From an archaeon (GTDB lineage: Archaea; Iainarchaeota; Iainarchaeia; JAFGOX01; DATDTB01): a DNA stretch of 40,808 nt. Position 1 is the first letter of the stretch; the number at the start of each line of letters is the position of its first letter. The notes below the pieces were generated by a model. That model saw only the letters and a program-made list of their open reading frames with translations. It had not been told where the DNA came from and did not search any database. Both the position numbers and the translations under genes were made by a program. Positions 1-36,198 of the stretch are shown here, in pieces. The stretch lies in NCBI GenBank assembly GCA_035291025.1, contig DATDTB010000045.1, forward strand, positions 1-40,808, read 5' to 3'.

Positions 1-3000
1 ACTCTATTTGCGGCCTGCCGCACTGGGTTATGTTGCCCGAGCTGACAAGCGTTTTCTCAATCAATGGCGTGCACGTGCTTCCAGTGAACGCGCACAGGTA
101 TTGTTCCCAGTCCTTGAAGTCGCACGCCGTGCTCGCCGCCAGCAAGTCAACCTGGCTCCCAGTAGAGCCCTCGCCAACAACCGCGCAGCTCGCCTGCGTT
201 TTCGTGGTAAAGCAAGGAGTCAAACCGAGTTGTTCGACTGGCAGTTCCGCTAACGAGTCAAAGCTGGAGACTGGCTTTGAGAGGAACACTATGGTTTTTT
301 GCTTGAAGTCCCTTAACAGGAACGATGGCTGTAGGACGAGGCTCGCGTTTACTTGTGTTTCTTTTCCTGCTTCGAGGACGAAGAACGACGGGTTGAATGA
401 TAATTGCTCAATGCCGGTTTCAGCGAACGAGCTAATTGAGACGTTTACTTTCTCGGTGCAGTCGTTTCTCACATTGAAGGTTGTTTGAGCGAGCGTGCCG
501 CGGTCGCGGTTCGGGAAGGACACGGGCGAAATGAACGAGTTGGTTATGCAGGCAAAGGAACTGAATTCGGCGTTGAACGCTTTAGAGTTGGTCGCGATGG
601 CTTTCCCTCCCAGCAAAGTGTAGGCGCCGTTGGCCGTGATTTTCACGTCGTTCGCGGCGCCGTCCCCGACTTGCCCGGCTTGCGGCTCGTAGCCAACGTT
701 TAAGTTGACAATTTGGCCAGTGTTGTGCTGCAGGGTTCCAATTACTACGTTCTTTTGCCCGTTAGAAAATATTGAATTGGAGAAAATGGTTCCCGCGTTC
801 CCGAAGCCAGTTGAAATGTTCAAGTTGACGTCCTTCAACTCCCTTTGGCACTTGTTTGTCACTTCAACGTCTTTGTATGCGCCGCTCGTCTCGCTTATTG
901 TTGCCTTTCCTTCCGGCGTTATTGTTATTTCAAGGCAGCCCTCTGGTGTTGGCTGGATTGTGGGCGAGAACAGGCTCACTGGAATCTCTGCAGTTATAAC
1001 CGAGGCCTCTGTCGCGGCAGTGAGCTTTAACTGGAAAGTTACCCTTATTTTGAAGTCTTCAGGGTAGGAGTTTTTCGGGATCCTCAAAGTCCCAGTGATG
1101 GCGCCCGCGGTTTCGTCGCTTGACCCAAACGATGCCTTGGATACTTCCAGTTTTTCGACTCGCACGCCGCCCGTGTCGTTGTTGGCAATGTTTTCAGGCC
1201 TTTCCGCGGTCGAGTCCCACGTCGGCGTTCCAATGATCGAGCCAGTGCTGCCCTCGACCGCCGCTTTCACAATGACTGCGATTGGCCCGGTTAGTCCTCC
1301 AGTGGGCAGTTCGTCAACGTTTATCGGCTCCTGCGGCCCTATTGGGATTACTTTGGCGAGGTTTTCAGCCGTTATGGGTATTTCCTTTTCAACGCTCCCG
1401 TACCCAGGGAACTGCCCTGAAACCTTTATGGGCGAGCCCTCGTTTTGAGGCGTTACCTTGATGGAGTACTGTTGTTTTTGGAAGTCCTCTGTCCAGTTCG
1501 TTTTCTCTATTTTTCCACCGGCAGCGCTCAAAAAACTCGCTTTCAGCGCGAGCCCGGAGTCCGCCAAAGGCAGAGTTGTAATCTTGTCGTTAATGAAGGT
1601 TTGCACCACAATCGTGTTTTCCTTTCCAAGCTGGGCCTCTGCAGGGCTCGTTATGAGGACGTCAAAGTTTCCAGCTGCGCGCGATTCCACGTTGAATTCC
1701 TTGAAGCTGGGCGGAGTGACGTAGCGGCTGGACTTCACGAGGCCAACGCTCCACGCCGCGTTTGCAGCGCTCTTTTCCGCCTTTACCTTGGCAGTAAAGA
1801 CTAGTTTTCCGCCAACCGCGATGTCTCCAGAGGCCTTTGAGAAAGAGTTAAGGCTTTGGCCTGTCTTTTCCTCAACAGTCGTTGTCGCCACTCCAATGTT
1901 TTTCAGCGAATAACTCTTTATAGTGAAAGTCTTTTGCTCCTGGTCTTTAATGACGAGGTTGCTGCCGGAGAGCACGCTCACGGTGCCGTGGTAGAAGTCA
2001 AAGGACGCCCCGCTTACCACGGAGGTGCCAGGGTTGCATACTTGGACTTCAATCGAGGCCTCCTCGCCCAGCAAAAGCGTTGGGAATTCGTCGCTCGAGT
2101 AATCCGTGGCGTTGCTTAGCCTTTTCACTTGCCCGCTGGGGTCAGTTATGGTCGCGTAAAAAGGAGCTTCCGGAGTGCAGCCGACTGGCTGGACGTCCAT
2201 TGTTCCAATGACTATTTTCGGGCTCAATTCCTTGGCTCCAGTCAGGCTTGACGCGTCGCACGCGCTTGACTCCGTGGACGTTTCGCCAAAGCACGACGTT
2301 CCAACTTTCTTCCAAGCCTTCACGCTCAATGGAATCTCTGTTCCCTGCTCTATTCCAGCCTTTACCTTGAACTCCAACCCGAAGTAAACTGACTCGGGGC
2401 CTTTCACGAGCCACTCAACCGCGCCGCGCGCCCCGCCCGTTGGAATGCTTGGAACGAAGTCAGACGTGGAACTGAAGGCTACGAAGTGGGCGTAGTCAGC
2501 GAACTTGTTCGTTGCCCCAAGCGCCGCAAAGCCTAGAGAGCCGCCGTCGCTTCCCTTGCTGATTGCCTGGAACTTCAGGCAATAGTTCTGGCCGGAGGCA
2601 ATGCTTCCGCTAAAGGGTAGCTCGTCGGAGCAGTTCTTGTAAACCCCGCGGTAAACTACTTGGGCGCCGTTTGACTCCCCGCTGACGATTTTGTCAGATT
2701 CCTTTAGCGTAATAGTGTAAAGCCCGCCAGAGGCAATCGTGACCGGTTCTGTTGTCACTTCCCTGTAACCAGAAGCCCTTACCACGAACGACCCGCGTTG
2801 TCCCTCGAACAAGAACACAGTCGTTGTTTTCCCGTCGCCCCCTGTCGTGTTTTCCAACGCGGTCAAAGTCCCAGTGGCGTCCTGGAAAGACAGTTGCGCG
2901 CCGCTAACAACGGAGCCGTTTTCAGCCTTGACTTCAGCCGTGACAATTATGGGCGTGAGCTTTAGCTTCAAGGTCACGCTTTTTTGCTCGCCTTCGCTTG

Positions 3001-4480
3001 AAAACTTTATCACTTCGCTGTTTGCGTCGAACTGCGCGTACGCCGCCTTGACAATGAAGTCCGTCCCGACAGGCAAGCCAACGAACGCGGCCTTGCCGTT
3101 CGCGTCAGTTGAGGCGGCGGGCTTGAATGGCGAGGGAGACACTTGGAGTATCCCCTTGACTGTCTGGACAGTGTGCAGCGCAACAGTCGCGTTGGGCACT
3201 GCGAAGCCTTGGTTGTCCGTGACCGAGACGCTGAGCCTCGTCACCTTTGCCGGGTCCACTGAGTCGAGCTTTTCCAGCTTGTAAGTGTAAGCCTTTCCCG
3301 GGTCAGCGCTGGCGACGCTGAAGTCCTTGTAACCCGACTTTGACAATATGAGCTTGTACTTCTTTTGCACGTCCACCGGCACAGTGACCTTGCCGTCGGC
3401 GGCAGTAGTGTAAGTTGAAACGTTGGAAGCGTCGTCAACCGGGTTCGAGGAAACAGTGACTCCCTGCAATGGCTTGCTTTCGCCTTCAACGACTGTAACT
3501 ACAATGGTGCCGCTGGCCTTTTCCAGTTCCACTTTGAGTTGCTGGACTTCGCCTGCCTTTATTGTCACGGGCGCGCTAAAGGTGTTGCTTGACAAGTAAC
3601 CGTCAGCCTTTACAACGACGTAAACCCTCGTCGCCTCCAAGTTCTCGAGCTTGGCGCTGCCCTCGGAGTCGCCCTTGGTGCTGCTTTTGAGGACGCCGCT
3701 GTTGGCTGAGCGGGCTTCCACGAACGCGTTGGGGACCGGCGCCTTTGTCACCGAGTCAGTTATTGAAACTATCAGCGTCCCCGTTCCAGTGGTCGGCGCT
3801 TGCTGTAAGTAAACCGGCGCAGGGTCGCCTGACTCTGGCACGCTGATTAGCTGGCCGTTCTCGGTTTGGTAAACAGCGCCTTCCTTGAATGGGACCTTGC
3901 AAGAGCCGTCGCACGGGTGCGTTGTCTGCGTACCGTCAACGTGTTTTGCCACTATGACCATTTTTCCAGGCGTGCCGTCCGGGTTTAGTATAGTGAACTT
4001 GAGCATTCTCTCAACTGCCACTAAAACAGCGTCCCTTGAAACAGCCTCGCTTCCCGTAGTAAACGTAAGCGAGAACGCCTCAAAACCCTTTTTTTCAGCC
4101 GCAAGAGTGACTTCAGTGTTGGCTGGAACGCTGAAGGAAGCCTTGCCGTCCTCCAAAGTGGTAAAGGAAAGCTTTTCCCCGCCAAAGGCGGCGCTCACAA
4201 AGGCTTCCGAGACAGGTTTGCCCGCGGCGTCAATGACTGAGACATTCAATGAAATCGCCCCCGGAGCCAAGGGGTTTGCTCCAAGGAACAACGCAGCCGG
4301 GACGGCAATGGCTCCAAGGACCAGCAACAGCATTACCGGCATTGAGGGAATGCCTTGGCTTTCAATGGCGTCCGTGACCGAGTAAACGGGGACTCCGGCC
4401 TTGTCCAAGGAGTCAAGCAAGTCGTAGTACTTGTCCTCAATCGAGAAGTACAAGTCCTTCAAAGGGTTTCCTTCAGCCAT
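1..4480 (-). CDS. Giant membrane-anchored surface protein, 3'-truncated by the window edge (>1,490 aa). Short cytoplasmic N-terminus and one TM helix, followed by tandem carboxypeptidase-regulatory-like/PEGA-type beta-sandwich repeats
   Basis: ATG at 4480-4478. Hand translation begins MAEGNPLKDLYFSIEDKYYDLLDSLDKAGVPVYSVTDAIESQGIPSMPVMLLLVLGAIAVPAALFLG... I translated about 1.5 kb from the start and about 0.7 kb at the left edge in this frame without meeting a stop. Repeats look like GTLIVSITDSVTKAPVPNAFVEARS...GSAKLENLEATRVYVVVKADGY and LSVSVTDNQGFAVPNATVAL...DANGKAAFVGLPVGTDFIVKAAY. It is absent from the ORF track because no stop codon lies in the window. The + strand ORFs listed here are short, low-complexity antisense products. 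Confidence 0.75.
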   Translation of the reverse strand, partial: MAEGNPLKDLYFSIEDKYYDLLDSLDKAGVPVYSVTDAIESQGIPSMPVMLLLVLGAIAVPAALFLGANPLAPGAISLNVSVIDAAGKPVSEAFVSAAFGGEKLSFTTLEDGKASFSVPANTEVTLAAEKKGFEAFSLTFTTGSEAVSRDAVLVAVERMLKFTILNPDGTPGKMVIVAKHVDGTQTTHPCDGSCKVPFKEGAVYQTENGQLISVPESGDPAPVYLQQAPTTGTGTLIVSITDSVTKAPVPNAFVEARSANSGVLKSSTKGDSEGSAKLENLEATRVYVVVKADGYLSSNTFSAPVTIKAGEVQQLKVELEKASGTIVVTVVEGESKPLQGVTVSSNPVDDASNVSTYTTAADGKVTVPVDVQKKYKLILSKSGYKDFSVASADPGKAYTYKLEKLDSVDPAKVTRLSVSVTDNQGFAVPNATVALHTVQTVKGILQVSPSPFKPAASTDANGKAAFVGLPVGTDFIVKAAYAQFDANSEVIKFSSEGEQKSVTLKLKLTPIIVTAEVKAENGSVVSGAQLSFQDATGTLTALENTTGGDGKTTTVFLFEGQRGSFVVRASGYREVTTEPVTIASGGLYTITLKESDKIVSGESNGAQVVYRGVYKNCSDELPFSGSIASGQNYCLKFQAISKGSDGGSLGFAALGATNKFADYAHFVAFSSTSDFVPSIPTGGARGAVEWLVKGPESVYFGLEFKVKAGIEQGTEIPLSVKAWKKVGTSCFGETSTESSACDASSLTGAKELSPKIVIGTMDVQPVGCTPEAPFYATITDPSGQVKRLSNATDYSSDEFPTLLLGEEASIEVQVCNPGTSVVSGASFDFYHGTVSVLSGSNLVIKDQEQKTFTIKSYSLKNIGVATTTVEEKTGQSLNSFSKASGDIAVGGKLVFTAKVKAEKSAANAAWSVGLVKSSRYVTPPSFKEFNVESRAAGNFDVLITSPAEAQLGKENTIVVQTFINDKITTLPLADSGLALKASFLSAAGGKIEKTNWTEDFQKQQYSIKVTPQNEGSPIKVSGQFPGYGSVEKEIPITAENLAKVIPIGPQEPINVDELPTGGLTGPIAVIVKAAVEGSTGSIIGTPTWDSTAERPENIANNDTGGVRVEKLEVSKASFGSSDETAGAITGTLRIPKNSYPEDFKIRVTFQLKLTAATEASVITAEIPVSLFSPTIQPTPEGCLEITITPEGKATISETSGAYKDVEVTNKCQRELKDVNLNISTGFGNAGTIFSNSIFSNGQKNVVIGTLQHNTGQIVNLNVGYEPQAGQVGDGAANDVKITANGAYTLLGGKAIATNSKAFNAEFSSFACITNSFISPVSFPNRDRGTLAQTTFNVRNDCTEKVNVSISSFAETGIEQLSFNPSFFVLEAGKETQVNASLVLQPSFLLRDFKQKTIVFLSKPVSSFDSLAELPVEQLGLTPCFTTKTQASCAVVGEGSTGSQVDLLAASTACDFKDWEQYLCAFTGSTCTPLIEKTLVSSGNITQCGRPQIE

Positions 4481-4593
4481 TCAAGAAAAACTCCAACAGC
4501 AAAGCGTTGAAAATTGTTACTTGCGCCCAGTTAATACATATCCCCCTTGTTTCAATTAATCTGTCGCCAATGTGTTTTAAAGGTATTCCTCTT

Positions 4594-7014
4594 TCACGGC
4601 AGCCCATTCGGGGTGCAAAGGTTGGTTCCTCCGGAGCCGATTGACGGTGGAGTGAAGCAGTTAGTCAGCGCTTGGCTTGAAAGCGGGCAGCACGCAGTCC
4701 TGTCATTGCACGCGGCGCCGCACTGCCCGCTCCCAGAGTTGACGCAGTCCGAGTTGGCGTGCGTTACAGTTACTGGGGGGATTCCATGATTGTGGTTTCC
4801 ACCAGTGCTTTGCGTCTGGCACCCAGTATTGCCAAAACCCGTCCTTTCCCAAGTGTTTTCCACGCATAAGGCTTCAGGGTTAGTGTTTGGCTGTCCGGGC
4901 GTGTTTGTCGCGGGAACCGCGCAGTCCGCCAAGTACGCCGCGTCATTTTCAGGCGTTGCGGTACACGGCCCGCCTGACAAGGTGCTGTAGCCGCTGGGGT
5001 TTATTCCTGTCTGAAGCGAGCACTTAGTGCACCGCGCCCGCTTGGCGTTGACTTCCGCGTCGTTTACTACTTGAGTAATCTTGGCTGAGTCTTCCTCCAG
5101 TGAAAGCCCAAAGCAGTAACGCGCCGGTTCGCCGTTTGACTTCCTTCCAACCGGGTCTTCGAGTTTCAAGTAAACCGGCTCCAGCTTCAAGGGCCGCGAG
5201 CACTTCAGGAACGCGCTCCCAGTGCCGCTCGAGTCAGGCATGTCCGAACACGTTCCAGTTGGCACGCTCGTCCCGGAAATCGCGCAGTTGTTCTGGGAAA
5301 AGGGGTTGGTGCAAGTATAATGGTTGGGGTGCCCTGTTTTGAGGCAAGTTGTCTGGAACTGCATTGAACAGCTCGCCTCGCACTCCCTTTTTGCCTTCCA
5401 TTCGGCGACGTCGTCGTTGTCTTCGCTGGAAATGCTTGAAAAGTTGACCTTGCCAAAGGGTGCGCCTGAAAACGACACGCTCTTGAGGCTGTTGTTCAAC
5501 GCCGTCACGCCGCCAGCGAACTGGGACTTTGAAACGCTTTCGCACAGCGTGTTCTGCTGCTCGCATTCAGCTGGCGTGAGGTTGCATGAAGGCGCGTCGA
5601 AGCCGTTCGAGGCCGCAGTCAGTAGTTCTGCTTCGGCAATGCCGCAAACGGTCGCGAGGGACAAGTCGAGAACTGTTTCGCCTGGGTTTTCGCATGAGTA
5701 CTCGTTTCCGGTGACACTTACCTGTGTTGGCGTGTTGGTGCTGTAGGAAATGAAGTCAATCGAATTTCCAACGCCGCTCAGCGTGACTGTTCGGTCGTCG
5801 TTGCAGCCCTTGCTTCCGGGCTTGTTTTCGCAGCTTGTCGGAGCACCTGCGGCTGGCATTTTCAAGGAAGTCTTGCACCCGCACCCGGTTCCGCACAGCC
5901 CTAGCATCACGCCGTTGTTGTAAGGGGTAATCTTTCCATCCAACTGGATTTGCGTGTTGCCCGGGCCTCCCGAGACGGCGAAGTCGTGGTTTCCAAACAA
6001 TGCGTTCGCGTTCTTGGCAATTGACTTGTAAAAGTTTCTAGCGTTCCACCACGCGCCGTAAACCCGGAGTGGGATGTGTATCTTGATTGGCTTTGAGGGA
6101 ATGGCGCTGAAGGTGAGCTTTGTCTCAACGTACGGGCTTGGAGTTGCGGTGTTGAAGCGCGACAATGAAATTGAAGGGCCTTCCACGCGTTCTTTTTCCT
6201 TTACTCTCTCGAAGTGAAGAGCGATTATGAAATCCCCGCCAGGGCAGCCCGTCTCGTCGCAGTCCACTGGGTCGAAGGCGTCCTCGGCAAAGGTGAAAGT
6301 TGCGGTGCTGAACGGGCTCGGCGACGCCGGGCCGAGGACTGCCATGGCTACTTGGTTCCATTGAAATGCTGCGGGCGCGTCCTTGTATTCAAGGAAGTAC
6401 GTCGAGAGCTGCAGTCCAGCGAGGGCGTTTTTCGCGTCTTCAACGGAGTTTTGAACGCTTTCCTGAACGAAGTTAACCATTGTCACGGGCGAGCCAAACA
6501 GCTTTTTCTCGAATATTTTCTTGTCATTCAACCAAATGTTTTGCGCGCTAAGCGCGCCAGTCAAGCCCGGGCACGGGCTGCTGGAAGTTGGCGTGCACAA
6601 TACCATCCTGTCAGTTGAATCGCTTGCCTGCAAAGTGAACAAGCCCGGCGTTGGAAAAGAGTTCCCTGCACCTGGAAGGCCAGTGCTGCACTCGAGCCTG
6701 TCCTCGACCCAGCCAACCTCGTTTTCGAAGTACTCGTTTACTTTCGTTCGCGTCTTGACCATGACGTTTTGGGTGATTTCAAGTTGAACGGATTCAATCA
6801 AGTCCTTTTGCACGGCGCGGCTCTCCGTGAGGATGTTTGAAAGGGCTTGCTGGTTTTGCGCTTCTATAAGGCTGAGGTAGACAAGCATGGTTATCACTGA
6901 GAGGAGGCTGCCGACGGCAACGCCGAACATGAAACCCTTGCCCTTCAGCTTTTCAGGGAGCGCTTCCGAGAACGCCTCCATTCCCTCAAGGGCCTTGAAC
7001 AGTGCGCGGACCAC
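4594..7014 (-). CDS. Large (806 aa) cysteine-rich secreted or anchored protein with a class III (type IV pilin-like) N-terminus; paralog of the upstream gene
   Basis: Long ORF with a GTG start 6 nt after the upstream stop. The N-terminus ...KLKGKG/FMFGVAVGSLLSVITMLVYLSLIEAQ is a basic leader ending in G followed by a hydrophobic helix. I count 36 Cys, all after about residue 100 and most in the C-terminal half. An alternative ATG start lies at 6981. Confidence 0.8.
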   Translation of the reverse strand: MVRALFKALEGMEAFSEALPEKLKGKGFMFGVAVGSLLSVITMLVYLSLIEAQNQQALSNILTESRAVQKDLIESVQLEITQNVMVKTRTKVNEYFENEVGWVEDRLECSTGLPGAGNSFPTPGLFTLQASDSTDRMVLCTPTSSSPCPGLTGALSAQNIWLNDKKIFEKKLFGSPVTMVNFVQESVQNSVEDAKNALAGLQLSTYFLEYKDAPAAFQWNQVAMAVLGPASPSPFSTATFTFAEDAFDPVDCDETGCPGGDFIIALHFERVKEKERVEGPSISLSRFNTATPSPYVETKLTFSAIPSKPIKIHIPLRVYGAWWNARNFYKSIAKNANALFGNHDFAVSGGPGNTQIQLDGKITPYNNGVMLGLCGTGCGCKTSLKMPAAGAPTSCENKPGSKGCNDDRTVTLSGVGNSIDFISYSTNTPTQVSVTGNEYSCENPGETVLDLSLATVCGIAEAELLTAASNGFDAPSCNLTPAECEQQNTLCESVSKSQFAGGVTALNNSLKSVSFSGAPFGKVNFSSISSEDNDDVAEWKAKRECEASCSMQFQTTCLKTGHPNHYTCTNPFSQNNCAISGTSVPTGTCSDMPDSSGTGSAFLKCSRPLKLEPVYLKLEDPVGRKSNGEPARYCFGLSLEEDSAKITQVVNDAEVNAKRARCTKCSLQTGINPSGYSTLSGGPCTATPENDAAYLADCAVPATNTPGQPNTNPEALCVENTWERTGFGNTGCQTQSTGGNHNHGIPPVTVTHANSDCVNSGSGQCGAACNDRTACCPLSSQALTNCFTPPSIGSGGTNLCTPNGLP

Positions 7015-7020
7015 GGGTTT

Positions 7021-9381
7021 TCAGCACCCCCCGCTTTCCCCGCAGGACTCTATTATGACGTCCCTGCCGTTCCTGCCGCCGTACAAGCCAGTCGAGGACC
7101 AGCTCACGGTTCTTGAAGCGCACTCCCGCTTGTAGTCTTCGAGTGCTTCTTTTATTTTTTCCTGTGCGGCCTTTTCCTCGTCGCCGTAGCCGTTCCTGGA
7201 GTCGTCTTTGATGCATTCGCTCCAGTCATTTCGCTTTTCCTCGCACAAGTACTTTGGTTCCTCGCCTTGCTTTACCTGCACTTTCGAGCCCGCCTTGCAG
7301 GCTTCCTTGCAGTCTTCCACGTTTGACACGACTGAAGAGTCGGCGTCCTCGCATTCCTTTTTTCCGTCGCCGTCAGCGCAGCACTCCTTCATGGAGTCCA
7401 GTTCTGTTTCGCAGGGCACGAAGTCGTTCAAGGTCTTTTGAGCCTCCGCGAGTACTGGGTCTGCTTGAATCCTTGAACTGAATGCGACGGGGTTGACGTC
7501 TTTCACGCACGGGTCAACGCCTTGCGGGGCGCATAGCTCGTCAACGCCCCACTCCGGTGGGTAGTATTCTAGTCCCAGCGCATTGCTGACGGAGCTGTGC
7601 GAGCACACGAAGTTGCCTGGGCTGGCGTTGCATTGCTCTCCGGAGCAGTCGCCAGTGAGCGCCAGCTGTTTTTCCAAGTTGTTTATCTTGGCGAGCTCTA
7701 CTTTTTGCACGTTTGCCTGCGCGCCGCCTGGAATGAATGTCACGTCAAAGTAGTAATCCGTTTCCTCCGAGCTAAAAGCGTGGTTGGGGTCTTCGTCCTT
7801 GAATGCGGCGCACATTTCGAACACGCCAGAGGGCCTTGAACAGTAAGTGTTTTCCGGCAATGGAATCCCGAAATGGGGGTCTTGGTCGGGCTTGCATTCC
7901 AGCCCGTAAACACCCCCGATCGCGGCGCCGCCTAGAATCGCGCGCGTCACGCTTGTCGGCAACCCAATCGCCGTAATCAAGTCCATTGCCTTGCATTTCT
8001 GCAGGCACACTTTCTTGGTGGCGAACTTTTGCTTGTCGGGGTACTCGAAGTTGACGACGCGCGCCGCCTCAAAGCCTCCAAGCGCGCCGGGTGCAACGCT
8101 TACCTTGAACGCCAAGCCTTCGGCGTTGCGCGCGTTTTCGCTCACTGTCCAAGCGCCGCCCTCGAATGGGTACGAGGCTTCTTCGAGCTGCGCGAGGGCC
8201 TTGCACCCGGCGGCCCACGAACCGGAACCGCTTTTTATTTCGCTTCCCTTCAACGGCGTCATTTTCCCGTCTTCCTTTAGCGTGGCAGAGGCGATGGCGC
8301 ACATGCTTTCGGCCACGACAAAGCCCAGCCCTACTTCTGGTGTGGAGCAGTTGTACTTCCCTGAAACGCTTAAGGTAGCGCCGGGCCCAAAGGACTGGTT
8401 GAAGGCAAGGCTTCGCTGCGCGCTTACGACGTTGCCGCAGTTTCTTTCCGGCAGCCCTTCACTGGCGACGTCAATGCACTTTCCTGCTGTTTCGTTCCAG
8501 GGGTCGCTCATGCAGGAACACGCGTCCTGCTTGCACGTCCCCACTTGCGGGCCGCTGAACCCGAGCTGTTGGCCCGAGCCGAATAGCTTGGAGCTGTTGG
8601 ACTCAATTGAGTTGAACATTTTCTTAGCGTTCGAGAGCGCCTTGAACAAGCGGAACTGCACGTACACGGGAATGCGCGCGGTTGGAAGCAAGGGTTCTGT
8701 GATGGCCTGCCCCGAGCCCACTTTTTCAATGCGCAGCTGCGGGAGCCTGGAAAGCGTCTCGACTGACAGTTCGTCCAACGCGAGGACAATGAAGAACGAG
8801 CCCTGCGGGCAGTTGTTCGGGGAGGGGCAGCCAATGACTTCGTACGCCTTCTCCCCCTTCCTTCGGAGCTGGTCCCTGACCTCGCTCCAAACCGCAGGGT
8901 CTCCGGGCTGAAAAGAGATGGCGTTGTTGCCCAAGAGCAAGTCCTCCTTCCTCAGGGAAACCTTTTCCTTTAACCTTTCCACTACGTTGTTAATGACAGG
9001 GGAAGCCCCGATTAGTTCCTGTTGGATGAACGCGTCAATGGAATCCTTCCACGGTTGGCTCTGGGAAGTGAACACTTTGACGTTGTCAACGTTCATTCCA
9101 GTCCCGCACCCCAGCGAGTCGAGGTAAAAAGAATACGCTTCGCGCGTGGCGAAAATCACGGTTTGCAGGGCGTCGGCCCGCACTCCCGCGATAACGTCAC
9201 CGAGTAGTTCCTGGCCGAAGGTGACGGAGAGCTGCGACAAGCGCGACTTTTCCATTTCCTGCACGTTGATGACGACCAAGATGCTTATGACTAGGAACAT
9301 TATGCCCACGAGCATGGAAAACAAGGCCATGCCGCGGTCGTTCAAGAAAAAAGAACGTCCAATCTTTAAGCGCCTGCTCAT
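7021..9381 (-). CDS. Large (786 aa) cysteine-rich secreted or anchored protein with a class III (type IV pilin-like) N-terminus
   Basis: ATG at 9381. The N-terminus reads MSRRLKIGRSFFLNDRG/MALFSMLVGIMFLVISILVVINV. I count 32 Cys. It shares blocks with the 806-aa protein: GCPSPNNCPQGSFFIVLAL vs CDETGCPGGDFIIALHF, and IPVYVQFRLFKALSNAKKMFNSIESNSSKLFG vs IPLRVYGAWWNARNFYKSIAKNANALFG. Confidence 0.8.
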   Translation of the reverse strand: MSRRLKIGRSFFLNDRGMALFSMLVGIMFLVISILVVINVQEMEKSRLSQLSVTFGQELLGDVIAGVRADALQTVIFATREAYSFYLDSLGCGTGMNVDNVKVFTSQSQPWKDSIDAFIQQELIGASPVINNVVERLKEKVSLRKEDLLLGNNAISFQPGDPAVWSEVRDQLRRKGEKAYEVIGCPSPNNCPQGSFFIVLALDELSVETLSRLPQLRIEKVGSGQAITEPLLPTARIPVYVQFRLFKALSNAKKMFNSIESNSSKLFGSGQQLGFSGPQVGTCKQDACSCMSDPWNETAGKCIDVASEGLPERNCGNVVSAQRSLAFNQSFGPGATLSVSGKYNCSTPEVGLGFVVAESMCAIASATLKEDGKMTPLKGSEIKSGSGSWAAGCKALAQLEEASYPFEGGAWTVSENARNAEGLAFKVSVAPGALGGFEAARVVNFEYPDKQKFATKKVCLQKCKAMDLITAIGLPTSVTRAILGGAAIGGVYGLECKPDQDPHFGIPLPENTYCSRPSGVFEMCAAFKDEDPNHAFSSEETDYYFDVTFIPGGAQANVQKVELAKINNLEKQLALTGDCSGEQCNASPGNFVCSHSSVSNALGLEYYPPEWGVDELCAPQGVDPCVKDVNPVAFSSRIQADPVLAEAQKTLNDFVPCETELDSMKECCADGDGKKECEDADSSVVSNVEDCKEACKAGSKVQVKQGEEPKYLCEEKRNDWSECIKDDSRNGYGDEEKAAQEKIKEALEDYKRECASRTVSWSSTGLYGGRNGRDVIIESCGESGGC

Positions 9382-9404
9382 GCGCTTAAAGGAACACGCC
9401 TTGC

Positions 9405-11397: not shown

Positions 11398-11886
11398 CTA
11401 GCCGAACGCGCAGCAGTTAACTATTATATCTGCCTGGTCACTTATGGTTTTGCAATAATCCCCTAGAGTTGTATCTAGGGAAAGTTTCTTGCTACCAGAT
11501 GCACCTTCTCCGTTGCTACTGTCCGGTTTGGCGCAAGATGTTGCTATTGCTTTGTATTGGCTGCCATAGTGTGCGCAAAGTTGGTTGGGGCTTGACTCGT
11601 CACCATCACAGTCCCCAATGCATTCGTATATTACCGAAAAACAATCAGTGGTGGCAATCTTTATTTCACTCAAAGGATGCCCCTGCGTTGCGGTCGCCGC
11701 CTGCAAGTTCAAGACGTTTGAGGGGTCGTCTCTGGGGTCTGACGCGAAGAAGACTTTCTTTAACTCCGGCCCGCTTGAGTAGAGCGTGAACGCTGAAACA
11801 GCCAGGACTCCTAGGAAGAAGAAGGCGTTCAATGCCGTCAGGATGGCTAGTTTGCTGCCTTTTTTGCCTTTCTTGTTTTTGTCCAT
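11398..11886 (-). CDS. Small (162 aa) N-terminally anchored or pilin-like Cys-rich protein, paralog 1
   Basis: The N-terminus reads MDKNKKGKKG/SKLAILTALNAFFFLGVLAVSAF. It has 8 Cys and ends in ...IIVNCCAFG. It shares the block KVFFASDPRDDPSNVLNLQAATATQ with the adjacent gene. Confidence 0.7.
   Translation of the reverse strand: MDKNKKGKKGSKLAILTALNAFFFLGVLAVSAFTLYSSGPELKKVFFASDPRDDPSNVLNLQAATATQGHPLSEIKIATTDCFSVIYECIGDCDGDESSPNQLCAHYGSQYKAIATSCAKPDSSNGEGASGSKKLSLDTTLGDYCKTISDQADIIVNCCAFG
11684..11762. repeat. 79-nt block nearly identical to 12242-12320 (copy 1)
   Basis: Hand alignment gives 4 mismatches in 79 nt. The flanking gene sequence has diverged at the nucleotide level. Confidence 0.85.
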
Positions 11887-11922: not shown

Positions 11923-12447
11923 TTATGGTAAGCCGCAGCAGCTCACTACTGAGTCGCCGCCGTCGGTGTCGTTGCAGAAAAAGCCAAGCGGGTCGTCAAA
12001 ACTGCCTTCTGCTTGGCAATCGTTGTTTCCACTACCATTAACACCGCAATCATCACCAGGGTCTTCTGTGTCATCGCACGCTACTGCTGTTGCAAAAGCG
12101 TTTTGTCCAAAAAACTTCTTGCAATACGCGTTTGGCGAGGCCGGTTCTGAAGTGTTTTGGAAACCACCTGGTAGGCACTCCCCGTTGCACTCAATTTCAA
12201 TTCCACTGCACTTTCCAGTTATTTCGGTCCAAGGGTGGGATTGTGTTGCGGTCGCCGCCTGCAAGTTCAAGACGTTTGAGGGGTCGTCTCTGGGGTCGGA
12301 TGCGAAGAAGACTTTCCTTAGTTCATGGTTGTTTGGGTAAATTATTGCCGCAGCCAGGCCAAGAACTCCTAAAAAAATCAGTACGTTGAAAGCGGTTATT
12401 ATACTTAGCCTTCTTTCCACGCCCTGGCTTGTTTCGCGGCTAACCAT
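11923..12447 (-). CDS. Small (174 aa) N-terminally anchored Cys-rich protein, paralog 2
   Basis: TM segment LSIITAFNVLIFLGVLGLAAAIIY. It has 10 Cys and ends in ...SVVSCCGLP. It carries the same FFASDPRDDPSNVLNLQAATATQ block. Confidence 0.7.
   Translation of the reverse strand: MVSRETSQGVERRLSIITAFNVLIFLGVLGLAAAIIYPNNHELRKVFFASDPRDDPSNVLNLQAATATQSHPWTEITGKCSGIEIECNGECLPGGFQNTSEPASPNAYCKKFFGQNAFATAVACDDTEDPGDDCGVNGSGNNDCQAEGSFDDPLGFFCNDTDGGDSVVSCCGLP
12242..12320. repeat. 79-nt block nearly identical to 11684-11762 (copy 2)
   Basis: See copy 1. Confidence 0.85.
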
Positions 12448-15966: not shown

Positions 15967-16170
15967 CATTGACTTTGCGGGCGCGCGCGGAAACGCCCTG
16001 CTTTGCCGTTGCGCCGTGCTTCTTTGATTTAGCTTCGTTTTTGCTTAAAAAGCATTACTTGAAAGTTTCAACTCTTCACTAAAGGCGTGCCTAAGAGTTT
16101 TTATATACCTTTCAGCTTAACGTATTGCGCTCTCATAGTTCCATGGCAGTTGAGTGAACGTGATGCCTTA

Positions 16171-18336
16171 ATGCCCATTTCAAAGCGGTTGGCCCGGATT
16201 TTGGTGAAAAAAGTTGCCAGGAAACTGGCGGTTGACCGCCAGGTTTACGGGCTGACCAGGAAGCCCTTGCCCGAAGAGCTCCCCTTCGTGGGCAGGGTCT
16301 TGGCCGTTCCCGGCGCCCAAGCAGGGCCTTTTTCGTTCGACGAACCCGAGAAAAGGCCCTTCAAGGCGCCGCCGTTGTTTCCATTGGAAGCGCCTTACCC
16401 GGTTCCATTGCCCGCTTTTCCAGAGTCCTTGGAGCAAAAGAAGAACCGCGAGGAGTTCGCGAGGCTTCAAAGGGAAGTCTCTGACTTGGTGCCCGAAGTC
16501 AAGCCCTTGGACGTGGGCGAGGAAGCCGAAAAAGTGGAAGGCGAGCAGGCAAAGCACGAGTTGTCGCAGAGGATTTCCGAGCGCTTGAAGAAGCCCATTC
16601 CAGGAGTCCAGCAAGTTGAAATCGTCGCCCAAGCCCCCGAGTCGACTCCTGTTCGAGTGGAGATGGAGGGCGTTTTGAGGGAAGCCGGGCTGGGGACCGA
16701 GGTAGTGAAGGCCGCCGCAGAACTGGCGCGCGAACTCGGAGGAACCCCTGGGGCCTCGGGCAAGATTACCAAACTTCCAGAGTTAAAGCACGCCTTGCCT
16801 GAAAGGTTTTTGACCGAAATCGAGAGCGCCTGGAAGCCGCCAATACTTACGCAGGTAAACGAGCGCTACTCACTCATCTCGCCTTTCGCGTACGCGCAGA
16901 TTCGCTGGGAGCCCCGCGAGGAAAGCCTTCACTATTACATCATTGAGCCCACGCTGAACGAGGACCAGCTCTTGAAGCTAAAGTACATCAAGGAACTCTT
17001 GTCGGAGTACTTGAACATTAACTTGTACGAAGTCCAGGACGTGAACAAGATAGAGCAGTACTTGAGGGACAAGGTTGATGAGCTAATTTCAAAGTACGTG
17101 CTCGAGCTCTCAGATGAGGAAAAATCCCTCTTGGGTTACTTCATTTCACGGGACTTGCTGGGACTGGACAAGATAGAGCCCTTGTTGAGGGATGAATCAA
17201 TCGAGGACATTTCCTGCATTGGAATTGGGTTGCCAATATACATTTTCCACAGAAAGTACGGGTCAATCCGAACAAATGTCGCGTTTGAGACCGAGGAAGA
17301 ACTAAACAAGTTCTTGGTGAAAATAGCCCAAAAATGCGGCCGCACGATTTCGGTTGCTCACCCTCTCTTGGACGGGTCACTGCAGGACGGCTCGCGCGTC
17401 CAAGCCACTTACTCGAGCGGCGCGGACATTTCCATGAAGGGCAGCACTTTCACTATCAGGAAGTTCACGAAGGACCCGTTCACTGTCACTGACTTGATGA
17501 ACTTTGGCACAATCCCTCCAATAATAGGAGCTTACCTTTGGCTCGCCGTCGAGCACCGCAACTCCTTGCTGATGTGCGGCGGGACCGCTTCAGGCAAGAC
17601 TGTTTTCTTGAACGTGGTTTCGTTGTTCATTCCACCCGAGTCAAAGATTGTCTCCATTGAGGACACAGCCGAGTTAAGGCTGCCGCACGAGAACTGGGTC
17701 CCGAAGGTGGCGCGCGCCGGCACCGGGCCAACGGACACGAGCGGGAGGAGGATGGGCGAGGTTAGCTTGTTTGACTTGCTCAAGGCCTCGTTCAGGGAGC
17801 GCCCGGACTACTTGGTCGTGGGTGAAGTGCGTGGCGAGGAAGCGTACGTTTTGTTCCAGTTAATGGCTTCAGGGCACCCGGGAATGGCCACTATTCACGC
17901 CGAAGACTTCAATTCATTGGTTCACAGGCTGACCACGAAGCCCTTGAACTTGTCTGCCGGGCTGCTGCAGAGCCTTGACGTTGTCTGCTTCATGGAGTCC
18001 ACAAAGGTCAAGGGCGTTGAAGTCCGTAGGGTAAAGGAAGTCGTAGAAATTGCAGGGATTGACTTGAAGAACGACCGGCCAATAGCCAACACGATTTTCA
18101 AGTGGGACGCCGCCACGGACTCCTTCAAGTTCGTCTCGGACAAGAGCTACGTGTTGAACAAGATAATTGAACTGAAGGGAGTGTCAGAGGGAAGCCTGTG
18201 GGAGGAACTGGAAAGGCGCACGGAAGTCTTGGACTGGCTCAGGAACTCCAACACGCGTTACTACACTGAAGTCGCAAAGATCCTCGCGGCCTACTACAAG
18301 GACCCGGAAAAGCTCTTGGAGCGCCTCAAAATATAA
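16171..18336 (+). CDS. Type IV filament assembly ATPase (FlaI/ArlI, TadA/CpaF, EpdL-like secretion NTPase) with a ~250-aa Pro/Glu/Lys-rich N-terminal extension
   Basis: Walker A is CGGTASGKT and Walker B/Asp box is RERPDYLVVGEVRGEEAY. The conserved N-domain begins around YSLISPFAYAQIRW...YYIIEPTL. The ORF track starts at GTG 16087. I prefer ATG 16171 because a TTTTTATATA box at 16098-16107 lies inside the longer version, but the start is uncertain. Confidence 0.88.
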   Translation: MPISKRLARILVKKVARKLAVDRQVYGLTRKPLPEELPFVGRVLAVPGAQAGPFSFDEPEKRPFKAPPLFPLEAPYPVPLPAFPESLEQKKNREEFARLQREVSDLVPEVKPLDVGEEAEKVEGEQAKHELSQRISERLKKPIPGVQQVEIVAQAPESTPVRVEMEGVLREAGLGTEVVKAAAELARELGGTPGASGKITKLPELKHALPERFLTEIESAWKPPILTQVNERYSLISPFAYAQIRWEPREESLHYYIIEPTLNEDQLLKLKYIKELLSEYLNINLYEVQDVNKIEQYLRDKVDELISKYVLELSDEEKSLLGYFISRDLLGLDKIEPLLRDESIEDISCIGIGLPIYIFHRKYGSIRTNVAFETEEELNKFLVKIAQKCGRTISVAHPLLDGSLQDGSRVQATYSSGADISMKGSTFTIRKFTKDPFTVTDLMNFGTIPPIIGAYLWLAVEHRNSLLMCGGTASGKTVFLNVVSLFIPPESKIVSIEDTAELRLPHENWVPKVARAGTGPTDTSGRRMGEVSLFDLLKASFRERPDYLVVGEVRGEEAYVLFQLMASGHPGMATIHAEDFNSLVHRLTTKPLNLSAGLLQSLDVVCFMESTKVKGVEVRRVKEVVEIAGIDLKNDRPIANTIFKWDAATDSFKFVSDKSYVLNKIIELKGVSEGSLWEELERRTEVLDWLRNSNTRYYTEVAKILAAYYKDPEKLLERLKI

Positions 18337-18360
18337 ACGGGATGAAAAAGTGAACCTGGA

Positions 18361-19254
18361 ATGACTTTCGTAAAACAGTACATGCTCTTCTCCTACAAGC
18401 TATTCGGCAAGTACATCCCGCCATACGAGAAGACGTTCACTGACTTGGCTGGGGACTTGGACCGCGTCAGGATCAACGCCATCCTACCAGAGTACATTTC
18501 AACAATAATTGTCAGCTCGCTTTTGTGCTTTTTCATCGCCTTGCCCGCGTTTCACACGATATTGTTCTTGTTCTTGGGTAAAGCCATTCCATTGCTTGCG
18601 GTCGCTCTCATCACGATTTTCGCAGCTGTGACGTTTGGCGGGATGGTTTTCATCTTGCTTTACAGTTACCCGAAATTCCTTTTGTCGGAGTACTCAAGAA
18701 GCATTGACGCCGCGCTGCCTTACGCGGCGGCCCACATGTCAACCATTGCCGGCACAGGGACGCCGGCGCTGTCAATCTTCAAGGTTTTGGCAAACTTCAA
18801 GGAATTCGGAGAGCTAAGCAACGAATGCGGCGACATAGTAAGAGACGTCGAGTTGCTCGGGTTCGACTTCCTCACTGCAGTCGAGAGAACGGCGCGCCGC
18901 ACTGCCAGCGTGAAGTTCAGGGACTTGCTGTGGGGGCTTATCACAACCATCAGGAGCGGGGGCGACTTGAGGCTTTACTTGATTCAAAAGGCTGACACGA
19001 TGCTCGAAGAGCACAGGCGCACGATCCGGGAGTTCGTCAACACGGTCGGGATGTTCAGCGAGATTTACACCACTATCTTCATTGCAGCGCCGTTGCTGGT
19101 AATAATAATGGTTGCCACCATGGCCATCCTTGGCGGGAAGTCGCTTCCAATCAACCCCGCGACGATGATGGTACTGCTTATTTACGTGTTCATTCCCTTC
19201 GGTTCGATACTGTCAATCCTGGCGTTGAAGGGAATGAAGCCGCAAGAGGTTTGA
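18361..19254 (+). CDS. Type IV filament platform membrane protein, single T2SS-F domain (FlaJ/TadC/EpdJ-K-like), gene 1 of 2
   Basis: 297-aa polytopic membrane protein. The cytoplasmic T2SSF-like segment reads AALPYAAAHMSTIAGTGTPALSIFKVLA...VERTARRTASVKFRDLLWGLITTIRSGGDL. It begins 24 nt after the ATPase stop. Confidence 0.8.
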   Translation: MTFVKQYMLFSYKLFGKYIPPYEKTFTDLAGDLDRVRINAILPEYISTIIVSSLLCFFIALPAFHTILFLFLGKAIPLLAVALITIFAAVTFGGMVFILLYSYPKFLLSEYSRSIDAALPYAAAHMSTIAGTGTPALSIFKVLANFKEFGELSNECGDIVRDVELLGFDFLTAVERTARRTASVKFRDLLWGLITTIRSGGDLRLYLIQKADTMLEEHRRTIREFVNTVGMFSEIYTTIFIAAPLLVIIMVATMAILGGKSLPINPATMMVLLIYVFIPFGSILSILALKGMKPQEV

Positions 19255-19258
19255 GAAA

Positions 19259-20533
19259 ATGGTGCAGGCAAAGAAAACGGATGCAAGGAAGAAGGAACCC
19301 CTAAAGAAGGGCCCGGCAATTGACGTTTACAGGCTGCGCTGGATAGTTTCCAAGAACATCTTCGTCTTCCTTCTCGGGATCGGGACCTTCCTAAGCATCC
19401 TCTTGTGGATTATTTCCTTTGTCTTGTTCGGGGTCACGCAGCAGTTCACCACGACTGTACTCTTGGGCACTCTCTTCCTTTACTCGCCGCTGCTCGTGTA
19501 CTTGTACCTGCAGTACTCGCGCGTCCAGGAAATCGAGGAGTACTTTCCTAATTTCTTGAGGGACTTGGCCGACGCCCAGCGCGCCGGCACGACCCTGCCG
19601 AGGGCGATTTACGCGACTTCCAACATTTACTACGGCGCCCTCTCCCCCGAAGTCAGGAAGATGGCGGACCAGATTTCCTGGGGGATCCCCTTCGAGGAAG
19701 TCTTCGAGCGCTTCAAGAAAAGGATCAACAGCGTGCTCGTGCGGAGGAGCATTGACATCATAATAGAGGCGCACCGCGCCGGCGGCCAGATAACGCAGAT
19801 ATTTGACACTGTCACGGCGGACACGCAGAAAATAAAGGAAGTAGAACACGAGCGCAGGAGCACTTTGAGGGTGCACGTTTACACTGTTTACTTCATTTAC
19901 TTTGTTTTCATGTTCATCGTCGTAATCCTTCAAACGCTCCTGGTTCCGTCGCTTCCAGCTATAAGTAACATTTCCAAGATAGTCGGCGGCGGCGGGCAGA
20001 GCATTTCAGAGGAAGGGTTTTACGTTTACCTGCTCCACTTGACAGTTATTCAGGGCTTCTTCATTGGCCTCATCGCGGGCGAGATGAGCGAAGGCAGCCT
20101 GACGGCGGGCTTGAAGCACAGCGTCATACTCATTGCCGTCGGCTTCCTCATTCTGCAGTCAATCGCCGCGCCTCCTGACGCGCAGTCGCGCCTGGTTAGG
20201 ATGATGACCCTTGTTCCGGGTGGGGTGGAACTGGACTTGGACTTGGGCATATATGAAGTGAGGCAAAACATGAGCTCGACTTCCATTGTAGGCGAAGTGG
20301 GGAAAATAATCCAATCAGACCCCTCCAAGACGTACTTGTCTCAAATAGTCGCGGAAAACATCATTTTCGACGACACGGGGTGTAATTCCTGCGGCCGGGC
20401 GACCGCGTTCGTTACCGACGACAGGCACGGATTGGTCGTGAGGCGTCCCGTCAAGCTGCACTTCGCCTTGCAGATAAAGAACTATGCTTACCTGATTTCA
20501 ATGAGGACGCCCGCGCAGGGAGCCGCGACTTGA
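19259..20533 (+). CDS. Type IV filament platform membrane protein, single T2SS-F domain (FlaJ/TadB-like), gene 2 of 2, with a ~120-aa C-terminal soluble extension
   Basis: The T2SSF-like segment reads FPNFLRDLADAQRAGTTLPRAIYATS...VRRSIDIIIEAHRAGGQITQIFD. AGAGGT lies 8 nt upstream of the ATG. The C-terminus after the last TM (from about RLVRMMTLVPGG...) is not recognisable. Confidence 0.8.
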   Translation: MVQAKKTDARKKEPLKKGPAIDVYRLRWIVSKNIFVFLLGIGTFLSILLWIISFVLFGVTQQFTTTVLLGTLFLYSPLLVYLYLQYSRVQEIEEYFPNFLRDLADAQRAGTTLPRAIYATSNIYYGALSPEVRKMADQISWGIPFEEVFERFKKRINSVLVRRSIDIIIEAHRAGGQITQIFDTVTADTQKIKEVEHERRSTLRVHVYTVYFIYFVFMFIVVILQTLLVPSLPAISNISKIVGGGGQSISEEGFYVYLLHLTVIQGFFIGLIAGEMSEGSLTAGLKHSVILIAVGFLILQSIAAPPDAQSRLVRMMTLVPGGVELDLDLGIYEVRQNMSSTSIVGEVGKIIQSDPSKTYLSQIVAENIIFDDTGCNSCGRATAFVTDDRHGLVVRRPVKLHFALQIKNYAYLISMRTPAQGAAT

Positions 20534-22454: not shown

Positions 22455-22574
22455 CGGGCCCGGCAGGATTTGAACCCGCGTTGCCGGTTTTCTTCGCAGG
22501 ACTTTTTGATGCAACTTTTTACTCAAAAAGTTGCTCCGAAGACCGGAATCCTATCCAGGCTAGATGACGGGCCC
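22455..22574 (-). tRNA. tRNA-Arg(UCG) with a ~46-nt intron at the canonical 37/38 position; CCA not encoded
   Basis: Minus-strand read: GGGCCCG-TC-ATCT-AGCCTGGATA-GGAT-T-CCGGT-CTTCGG[intron AGCAACTTTTTGAGTAAAAAGTTGC...CTGCGAAGA..]A-ACCGG-CAAC-GCGGG-TTCAAAT-CCTGC-CGGGCCC-G. Intron CGAAG can pair with exon CTTCG, which is BHB-like. Confidence 0.8.
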
Positions 22575-22717: not shown

Positions 22718-23167
22718 TTACTCGACTCGGATGCTGGCGCGCTGCCTTACCTCGAAGTCCGTTGCGGTCGCGCTCACTTCTATTGCGTAAGTCCCCTTGT
22801 CCACGCCCTGTTCCGCAGTAACCTTTACTTCCTTCTTGCGTTCCTGGCCGATCGCGACCTTGTCGAAGCCGAACTCCGTTGGCTCGAAGACCAGTTGAGT
22901 GGAGTCAATTGCCTTTACAGTTACTTGGACGTTTTCCAAGTCCTTCCCGGAAGTGTTCTTGAACACTATTGTCACAGTCGCGTTGTCGCCGGGCTTTAGG
23001 GAACCGCTGGAAAACGAGAACGTTATCGGAACATTCACGTAGTTCATCCACGCGTAGGCAATCCCAGCCAGCACAATCACGCCAACCACCATTGGAAGAA
23101 TTGGCACGCTTTTTACGGCGTTGACCGGCCCCTCGACGCCTTCGCTTAACTGGTCATACAATCCCAT
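22718..23167 (-). CDS. Membrane-anchored protein with a CARDB/Ig-like beta-sandwich domain (149 aa)
   Basis: N-terminal TM segment ILPMVVGVIVLAGIAYAW. It is followed by LKPGDNATVTIVFKNTSGKDLENVQVTVKA, a CARDB-like pattern. Confidence 0.65.
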   Translation of the reverse strand: MGLYDQLSEGVEGPVNAVKSVPILPMVVGVIVLAGIAYAWMNYVNVPITFSFSSGSLKPGDNATVTIVFKNTSGKDLENVQVTVKAIDSTQLVFEPTEFGFDKVAIGQERKKEVKVTAEQGVDKGTYAIEVSATATDFEVRQRASIRVE

Positions 23168-31553: not shown

Positions 31554-31559
31554 GAAAGC

Positions 31560-31820: not shown

Positions 31821-31823
31821 GAA

Positions 31824-32444: not shown

Positions 32445-32461
32445 TCAATCGTTGTCCCCTT

Positions 32462-33241: not shown

Positions 33242-33255
33242 TGCATTCACTTTTC

Positions 33256-34314: not shown

Positions 34315-34320
34315 TAAAGT

Positions 34321-35172: not shown

Positions 35173-35176
35173 CAAA

Positions 35177-36178: not shown

Positions 36179-36198
36179 GGTCTTTCACTTTTCAATGT

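Follow-up and report, generated by a model that had tools for sequence, protein, structure and literature searches.

The stretch of DNA considered here, referred to as the window, comprises the 40,808 nucleotides of contig DATDTB010000045.1 (assembly GCA_035291025.1) from an archaeon of the Iainarchaeota. Bases 1-9381 (9,381/40,808 nt, 23% of the window) are taken up by three co-directional open reading frames (ORFs) on the minus strand, and these genes, with the protein family and the surface module to which they point, are the subject of this report. The first ORF called, A786 (7021-9381, minus strand, ATG start), encodes a cysteine-rich (4.1% Cys), prepilin-like protein of 786 amino acids, a long-form member of its family. 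After a gap of 6 nt follows B806 (4594-7014, minus strand, GTG start), which encodes an 806-residue protein with 4.5% Cys, a diverged tandem paralog of A786. A further 113 nt separate B806 from C (1-4480, minus strand), the gene of a giant surface protein of the type termed 'giant2', which starts with the ATG at 4480 and runs off the left end of the window; residues 1-1,493 of its 2,085 lie within the window and contain 1.2% Cys. The original prediction, made from the letters of the window, had described three tightly spaced minus-strand genes (786, 806 and >1,490 amino acids; gaps of 6 and 113 nt; ~23% of the window), and the ORF calls return the same coordinates.

A786 is deposited as HLD80813.1 with the annotation 'hypothetical protein', on a contig of 40,816 nt, nearly all of it covered by the window, whose locus tags carry the prefix VJA40_. 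Five other contigs, assembled independently, carry an identical A786, and such contigs occur in the groundwater runs SRR3989338 and SRR2090155. Homologs exist for all three ORFs, which are therefore real genes rather than products of chance. The guanine-cytosine content is 0.55-0.58 over the block (window 1-9400), compared with about 0.52 elsewhere in the window.

The A786 and B806 family

By sequence comparison, A786 and B806 are diverged tandem paralogs (BLASTP E = 2e-10 across about 320 residues) within a real, unannotated family. An exhaustive phmmer search with A786 returned 135 clusters at 50% identity (E <= 1e-3), all aligned across the N-terminal 250-460 residues. The proteins in these clusters are typically 350-620 amino acids long, with a typical member of about 470-530. 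Against a hidden Markov model (HMM) built from 63 members, A786 reaches 153 bits and B806 50.8 bits. The orthologs of A786 are P0003, its closest named relative (836 amino acids, 36% identity, a hypothetical protein of a Candidatus Diapherotrites metagenome-assembled genome), and P0004. The size of ~800 amino acids that the original prediction had emphasised holds for this pair, and is exceptional within the family.

The conserved core of A786 (8482-9261, minus strand; residues about 41-300) contains the invariant residues C185, C191, G194, P214 and R244 in the family alignment, and is modelled with a predicted local distance difference test (pLDDT) score of about 90-96. Across the family the invariant features are two cysteines and the motifs G-[TS]-F-[YF] and P..R.F; in B806 these are visible in the alignment with A786 as C..C..G[TS]F[YF] and IY/HxP.R.F/Y. 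The C-terminal tail of A786 (7021-7653, minus strand; residues about 577-786) is Cys- and acid-rich, lineage-specific, modelled with low confidence and absent from the typical members of ~470 amino acids. The invariant Cys pairs and the overall Cys content of 4-4.5% suggest extracellular disulfides. No Cys-rich module common to the tails of A786 and B806, to C and to the gene that follows C was detected.

Neither A786 nor B806 has a match in Pfam, NCBIfam or PDB sequences. A phmmer search of the PDB gave noise only (gp120 at E = 0.25; FimH at E = 0.0024 over 75 residues), and the family profile gave 0 matches to PDB sequences. A word-indexed homology search, which saturates at 8,000 candidates, found nothing for A786 and only a 99%-identical fragment for B806; with a 127-sequence profile only a fragment was returned. 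No confirmed match came from a metagenome scan with A786 and its two orthologs. A viral or mobile origin of the family was considered and rejected, as no relatives were found in IMG/VR. The original prediction recognised no characterised family for the ~800-residue pair, and the Pfam, NCBIfam, PDB and Foldseek searches all remained without a match. The family and its operon were found nowhere in the literature searched, the coverage of which is incomplete and does not prove novelty.

An AlphaFold2 model of A786 from its single sequence was unusable (pLDDT 34), and only the model built on the multiple sequence alignment of the family was used. Its mean pLDDT is 68, with values above 90 for residues 20-300. 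It predicts one unbroken helix of 72 residues (18-89) followed by an alpha/beta domain; the tail at 577-786 is unreliable. With a long N-terminal helix and a head, the predicted architecture is pilin-like, and the fold of the head is not recognisably that of a pilin. The alpha-beta roll head of a type IV pilin proper was not found in this model, which is confident for residues 20-300 only.

Prepilin-like N-termini

With the putative cleavage site written as a bar, the N-terminus of A786 reads ..NDRG|MALFSMLVGIMFLVISILVV, and the site directly before the hydrophobic segment is ..DRG|M. The N-terminus of B806 reads ..KLKGKG|FMFGVAVGSLLSVITMLVYL, with ..KGKG|F directly before the hydrophobic segment. 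Each protein has one hydrophobic window, which is N-terminal and has a hydropathy of 2.2-2.8 over 20 residues. The leader of A786 (9331-9381, minus strand) consists of residues 1-17 (MSRRLKIGRSFFLNDRG), or of the five residues MNDRG if the gene starts at the TTG at 9345. The shorter leader agrees with those of orthologs (MNKKG, MRLSSRG) and with the family mode of 5 residues (45/106 family sequences). For B806 the alternative start is the ATG at 6984. In both genes the ambiguity of the start codon leaves the motif untouched. The hydrophobic segment of A786 (9262-9330, minus strand; residues 18-40), defined by hydropathy, AlphaFold2 and a FlaFind-like rule, forms the beginning of the predicted 72-residue helix. 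In B806 the putative cleavage site and hydrophobic segment (..KLKGKG|FMFGVAVGSLLSVITMLVYLSLI) lie at 6865-6936 on the minus strand, and the counterpart at a related locus, L081, reads MGLSEKG|FMFTPALGIM. Counted from the longest ORFs, the putative mature proteins would begin at M18 of A786 and F28 of B806.

The N-terminal consensus of the family is M-N-x-[KR]-[GA]|F-[NT]-[LM]-F-[TS]-A-[LI]-V, followed by ~20 hydrophobic residues and then by M-x-x-[TS]-E, in which the Glu is invariant. Position -2 is K or R in 109/113 sequences, position -1 is G or A in 113/113 and position +1 is F in 111/113. The motif resembles the bacterial G|FTLIE signature, but bacteria have Glu5 where the family has T. 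Conservation in the family is highest in the hydrophobic segment, with a mean top-residue frequency of 0.61 vs 0.31-0.33 across most of the rest, and this pattern fits a pilin alpha-1 helix rather than a generic signal anchor.

A FlaFind-like rule, which is an approximation of the published pattern, passes 74/80 family ORFs compared with 36/3,771 other ORFs from the same loci. Among the 188 ORFs of the window, only A786, B806 and two shadow ORFs pass. The original prediction had seen a class III signal layout on the first two proteins and proposed a check of this kind. Both N-termini pass it under this approximation, and the [KR]-[GA]|F site is conserved throughout the family, with the leader mode of 5 residues. 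A class III (prepilin) signal is thus supported for A786 and B806 by the fit of their N-terminal sequences.

Giant surface proteins and conserved gene order

Protein C begins with an acidic block of ~48 residues, continues with a hydrophobic segment (residues 49-67) and then passes into CarboxypepD_reg repeats. The block and the segment (4280-4480, minus strand; ..EDKYY..LD.LDK.G.PVY...DAIE...IPS.P) form an N-terminal module that is common to 134 copies from 68 loci. The immunoglobulin (Ig)-like/carboxypeptidase-regulatory-like beta-sandwich repeats assigned by Pfam cover residues about 70-600 (2681-4273, minus strand). CarboxypepD_reg is matched in 4 stretches (95.2 bits, gathering cutoff 32.3, E = 3e-27) and Big_1 at 39.2 bits (cutoff 34.9), and MG4 is also matched. 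One transmembrane helix followed by carboxypeptidase-regulatory-like repeats had been described for this gene, as was found; the cytoplasmic side that the original prediction gave to the N-terminus is putative.

The flanking contig that the original prediction had wanted for completing the third gene is provided by the near-identical contig L121 (ENA ERZ4903137, 13,129 nt), which reaches beyond the left end of the window. The complete protein has 2,085 amino acids, and 1,491/1,493 of the window residues are identical. The C-terminal 590 amino acids outside the window correspond to L121 10800-12259. About 35 Cys fall within residues 1,600-1,870, arranged as roughly six repeats of the pattern C-x2-C-x5-8-C-x6-9-C. 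The last ~150 amino acids resemble Endostatin (PF06482; C-type-lectin-like) below threshold (E = 0.0035, 17 bits vs a cutoff of 29), and this terminal domain may serve in distal binding. A suspected DUF1554-type domain for the C-terminus was not confirmed, the sub-threshold Endostatin match being the only one. The gene after C on L121 encodes a Cys-rich protein with a Sec signal, not another giant.

The fuller pattern of the giants' N-terminal module is ..EDKYY.FLDWLD.KGIPVY..VDAIE..NIPSFP plus about 20 hydrophobic residues, for which Pfam gave no match. Each of 77 complete giants has a single membrane-type segment, the hydrophobic one at the N-terminus, and none lies in the last 80 residues. 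The N-terminal block may be a signal anchor's cytoplasmic domain or else part of an extended signal peptide, and the module as a whole is a candidate for a new sorting signal. A class III site in the giants' N-terminus, suggested by a few copies that read ..IEA|QNIPSFP, was rejected, as position -1 is not conserved. A 149-residue protein encoded in the window at 22718-23167 (minus strand), with a short N-terminal region, one transmembrane segment and an NPCBM_assoc/CARDB-like domain, repeats the giants' anchor-plus-beta-sandwich layout in miniature; the HMM of the giants' N-terminus does not match it.

When one genome for each GTDB species was scanned with a pattern built on a 15-sequence alignment, a relative of the family was found encoded in 109 GTDB species genomes. 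From these, 80 loci were taken for counts of synteny, with the informative loci as denominators. The 80 loci are nearly all labelled Iainarchaeum/Diapherotrites and include the complete AR10 genome and I. andersonii; the few with other taxonomic labels are suspected of mis-binning. There is one family member per locus in 78/80 loci. It is flanked on the same strand by giants that all bear the N-terminal module of C, and opposite-strand giants were never seen in these loci. Upstream, a giant of about 2,400-3,000 amino acids ends <=1.5 kb away in 35/41 informative loci, with a median gap of about 44 nt. Downstream, a C-type giant of about 2,300-3,000 amino acids starts <=2.5 kb away in 61/67 informative loci, with a median gap of about 130 nt, and a third giant follows in 9/12. 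The order in AR10 is 2,842, 490 and 2,669 amino acids, then a further giant. Occasional wider gaps contain insertions such as toxin-antitoxin-like genes.

The window combines a match to the family core with a C-type giant immediately downstream, C starting 113 nt after B806 and scoring as the downstream 'giant2' class at 200 bits. Its lineage is peculiar in having two enlarged tandem copies and in lacking the upstream giant, in place of which there is an M20 peptidase gene. The relative L081 (32% identity) has an A-like gene (735 amino acids), a B-like gene (573 amino acids, MGLSEKG|FMFTPAL) and a C-like giant in the same order, and the triplet is thus conserved in that lineage. The three genes had been expected to be conserved neighbours, which is borne out by L081 and, for the pairing of the pilin-like protein with a giant, by the 61/67 loci.

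With about an even chance of being correct, the block is read here as the local version of a conserved, undescribed surface module of Iainarchaeota/Diapherotrites-type DPANN archaea, in which a class III-type Cys-rich protein is combined with giants. The core of such a module would be one disulfide-rich prepilin-like gene in operon-like spacing with giants of about 2,100-2,900 amino acids. In the window lineage the prepilin-like gene has been duplicated as A786 and B806, both enlarged by Cys-rich regions at the C-terminus, and of the giants only the downstream one, C, is present. As the family is nearly always found beside giants, the product is probably a cell-surface or attachment structure.

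In the mechanism proposed for this module, a class III signal peptidase encoded elsewhere would cut after the [KR]-[GA] site. The conserved hydrophobic alpha-1 could then be a membrane-extractable stalk, loaded in trans by a type IV filament ATPase and platform as in the Sulfolobus bindosome; alternatively, the helix could remain in the membrane as a specific anchor. The Cys-rich head and the giant Ig-repeat protein would together form an exposed coat or attachment layer. A bolder version, which is speculative and has a low probability, holds that the giant/prepilin-like/giant(/giant) operon makes the main organelle of the envelope or of attachment in these archaea. It would be an archaeal surface structure of a new kind, in which a prepilin-like stalk with an unseen head fold is processed, is lifted from the membrane by type IV filament machinery in trans, and carries or organises giants of 2,000-2,900 amino acids. 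The giants would then be exported via the novel ~48-residue N-terminal module and its hydrophobic segment.

Several observations weigh against the prepilin-and-giant module. The association of the pilin-like protein with the giants is one of gene order alone. The curated prepilin and pilin models (Pfam Class_IIIsignal, Pilin_N and N_methyl; NCBIfam) were unmatched by the whole proteins at E <= 0.01, and Pfam searches with N-terminal fragments gave only the TadE/G-like 'Tad' at a sub-threshold E = 0.03. The +1 residue is M in A786 and V in the ortholog P0004, compared with F in the family, and the mature N-terminus of B806 is out of register by one residue. The best Foldseek match of the A786 model in the PDB has E = 1.4, with no pilin among the matches listed; in BFVD the best has E = 0.5, with none below. 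A class III signal peptidase gene is absent among the window ORFs scanned. When all window proteins were compared by tblastn with the 80 family loci, no ATPase, platform or other window gene was found within <=10 kb.

The main rival to this reading is that A786 and B806 are ordinary, uncleaved type II signal-anchor proteins, resembling SlaB in function, whose long N-terminal helix spans the membrane as a stalk and holds a canopy of giants in an S-layer-like coat. The [KR][GA]F motif would then be a determinant of topology or packing rather than a peptidase site, and type IV filament machinery would play no part. A single copy at 78/80 loci and a phylum-wide fixed gene order suit a core envelope component of this kind, as does the fact that an assembly ATPase is never nearby. 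The modelled 72-residue helix could serve as a stalk, the giants, in which the sole hydrophobic segment is N-terminal, may depend on a partner, and no pilin model or pilin fold was matched. A generic anchor, however, needs no invariant G/A at -1, K/R at -2 and F at +1, nor a leader of five residues, and its membrane segment would not be expected to be conserved above all other regions. SlaB itself is anchored C-terminally, and no sequence similarity to S-layer families was found in Pfam. An uncleaved stalk is rated as rather unlikely.

A further proposal is that the proteins are bindosome-type substrate-binding proteins or secreted effectors, with Cys-rich heads that bind nutrients or act on a host, the giants being unrelated. 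Class III signals are known on large non-pilin substrate-binding proteins, and the C-terminal regions of the family are lineage-specific and variable. Against this, the Pfam, NCBIfam and PDB searches turned up no domain of a substrate-binding protein, enzyme or toxin, no ABC transporter lies beside the genes in the window or in the inspected loci, and the adjacency to giants is too consistent for unrelated neighbours. The proposal is very improbable.

The window also carries archaeal markers, namely an intron-containing tRNA gene, Trm5/TYW2, DUF63 and a LysX-type lysine pathway, and the labels of its relatives (Iainarchaeum/Diapherotrites) agree with the uncultivated, possibly episymbiotic archaeon of the original prediction in so far as they indicate a DPANN-type organism. 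The tRNA gene (22455-22574, minus strand; Rfam 40 bits, missed by ARAGORN) is interrupted by about 47 nt, presumably an intron of the archaeal type. A contiguous alpha-aminoadipate (AAA)/LysX-type lysine-biosynthesis block at 29351-39119 (minus strand) includes homocitrate synthase, aconitase-like subunits, an isocitrate/isopropylmalate-type dehydrogenase, LysX, a semialdehyde dehydrogenase, an amino-acid kinase, an aminotransferase and an M20 peptidase. For a genome of the DPANN type, such anabolic capacity is unusually rich; a similar capacity has been reported in some Micrarchaeota/Diapherotrites lineages (PMC8561730).

Nearby filament genes and known systems

A type IV filament assembly module lies 6.7 kb from the block on the opposite strand (16087-20533, plus strand). 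It consists of a FlaI-like ATPase gene (16087-18336; Pfam T2SSE) and a platform protein split over two genes (18361-19254 and 19259-20533; Pfam T2SSF in both). By NCBIfam, the ATPase scores 406 bits against FlaI (cutoff 550), and the platform genes correspond to the N- and C-terminal halves of FlaJ. The ATPase has a Pro- and Glu-rich N-terminal extension of about 270 residues. A split platform layout has been described in archaeal type IV filament (TFF) 'system 1' as well as in some '4A' loci of DPANN archaea (2026 preprint), and type IV pilus genes have been reported in Iainarchaeum andersonii and AR10, with FlaIJK in related DPANN archaea (PMC8561730). Between A786 and the module are genes for an M20 peptidase, a HAD hydrolase, five unannotated proteins, a tRNA and a prenyl-diphosphate synthase.

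Also situated between the giant-gene block and the ATPase module are two tandem small paralogs, at 11398-11886 and 11923-12447 (both minus strand), of 162 and 174 amino acids and 43% identity. Each has a hydrophobic segment at the N-terminus and a Cys-rich tail with CC as its last residues; the block VFFASDPRDDPSNVLNLQAATATQ is identical in the two, and neither has a Pfam or NCBIfam match. Their candidacy as pilins was rejected, as the [KR][GA] site before the hydrophobic segment is absent.

The original prediction had joined the block and the ATPase/platform module 7 kb away into one apparatus. The corresponding rival reading makes A786 and B806 adhesins, placed as tip or minor pilins on a filament built by this module, in one attachment organelle with the giant. 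The module is real and close, with its T2SSE gene and two T2SSF genes at 16087-20533. Bacteria offer a precedent in the large tip-located minor pilins CofB and TcpB. Large adhesin-like proteins also accompany some archaeal type IV pilus loci (PMC4858521; 2026 preprint). At 38 metagenome loci around relatives of the window ATPase, the 30 closest of which share 42-60% identity with it, most keep the triad of the ATPase and two platform genes, and several have small canonical pilin genes (RRKA|ISY.., MKG|QS..). Downstream of the window module there is no such small pilin gene but a DUF192 gene and a gene for a 192-residue protein, which leaves A786 and B806 as the sole class III candidates in 40.8 kb.

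The linkage that a single apparatus would require is absent in both directions. No family member or giant was found at any of the 38 ATPase loci, and the co-occurrence of homologs of the three genes with ATPase and platform genes, which the original prediction had proposed to test, was not seen within 10 kb at any of the 80 family loci. The conserved nearness to an ATPase and platform locus that characterises a type IV pilin proper was thus found at 0/80 and 0/38 loci. In addition, nine unrelated genes and a tRNA gene intervene, the module is on the opposite strand and no major pilin candidate is present in the window to build a filament. The tip-pilin reading is unlikely, and the inference from the window that the nearby FlaI/FlaJ genes share the block's apparatus is corrected. 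With one copy per genome and a phylum-wide gene order, a core envelope component is at least as good a fit as an accessory adhesin. There is room for the module to act on A786 and B806 in trans; a dedicated joint locus is not argued for.

The preferred reading, a conserved module of a prepilin-like protein and giants, concerns archaea that are mostly uncultivated, and in which the building of the envelope and the contact with cells and surfaces are largely unknown. It rests on a widely conserved, unannotated family with a prepilin-type N-terminus and a head matching no solved structure, on a conserved N-terminal module common to three giant surface proteins, and on a fixed gene order of family and giants in most informative loci labelled Iainarchaeum/Diapherotrites. 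These supply targets for metaproteomics, cryo-electron tomography and heterologous cleavage assays.

Among known systems, CofB/TcpB and TadG are large minor or tip pilins, or pilus-associated adhesins, of bacteria. Their archaeal counterparts in this comparison are the PilY-like DUF2341 proteins of the Methanococcus Epd loci (PMC4858521). All of these share with the present family a pilin-like N-terminal helix with a large extra domain and a presumed role in adhesion or initiation, and the weak TadE/G-like Pfam signal (E = 0.03) is a further likeness to TadG. They differ in that they lie inside pilus operons with major pilins, which this family never does, and no DUF2341, vWA or pilin fold was detected in it.

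A study by Makarova, Koonin and Albers in 2016 noted large Cys-rich signal-peptide proteins in the type IV pilus loci of Thermoproteales, and read them as adhesin, minor pilin or S-layer-like (PMC4858521). These are similarly large, with many conserved cysteines and very fast sequence evolution. They belong to another lineage with no detectable homology, and are linked to the ATPase, whereas the present family is linked to giants only. The pilus components of DPANN archaea have been described as sequence 'dark matter' (PMC4858521; PMC6393860).

The SPEARE proteins of Nanohaloarchaeota are likewise giant surface proteins of DPANN archaea, with serine protease and restriction endonuclease domains and a proposed role in cell-cell contact (PMC6642349). 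They have another N-terminal module, and their genes lack a prepilin-like partner. In full-length C and the AR10 giants only Ig-like domains were detected, with no protease or endonuclease domain. The SlaA/SlaB S-layers are alike in having an operon for a very large outer protein and a helical, membrane-anchored partner of ~470 amino acids, with one copy per genome. SlaB differs in its C-terminal helix anchor, in the lack of a prepilin-like motif and in showing no sequence similarity.

The closest mechanistic precedent is the bindosome of Sulfolobales, together with the broader 'functionalised TFF' proposal. It has been reported that class III signal substrate-binding proteins of the bindosome are assembled by BasEF, that class III signal proteins in Sulfolobales are encoded away from the assembly ATPase, and that a wider class of 'functionalised TFF' may exist (bioRxiv 10.64898/2026.04.22.720090). 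The present family differs in that its partner is a giant Ig-repeat protein, its head fold is unmatched and its cleavage and assembly are putative; A786 and B806 have no substrate-binding Pfam domain, and the scanned ORFs of the window include no ABC transporter. Should the prepilin reading be true, the concept of 'functionalised' type IV filament machinery would reach beyond proteins that bind nutrients and take in the display of giant surface proteins. The two systems are alike in having large non-pilin proteins of about 500-800 amino acids with a class III-type N-terminus, a helix and a variable C-terminal head, encoded away from the assembly ATPase and beside their functional partners.

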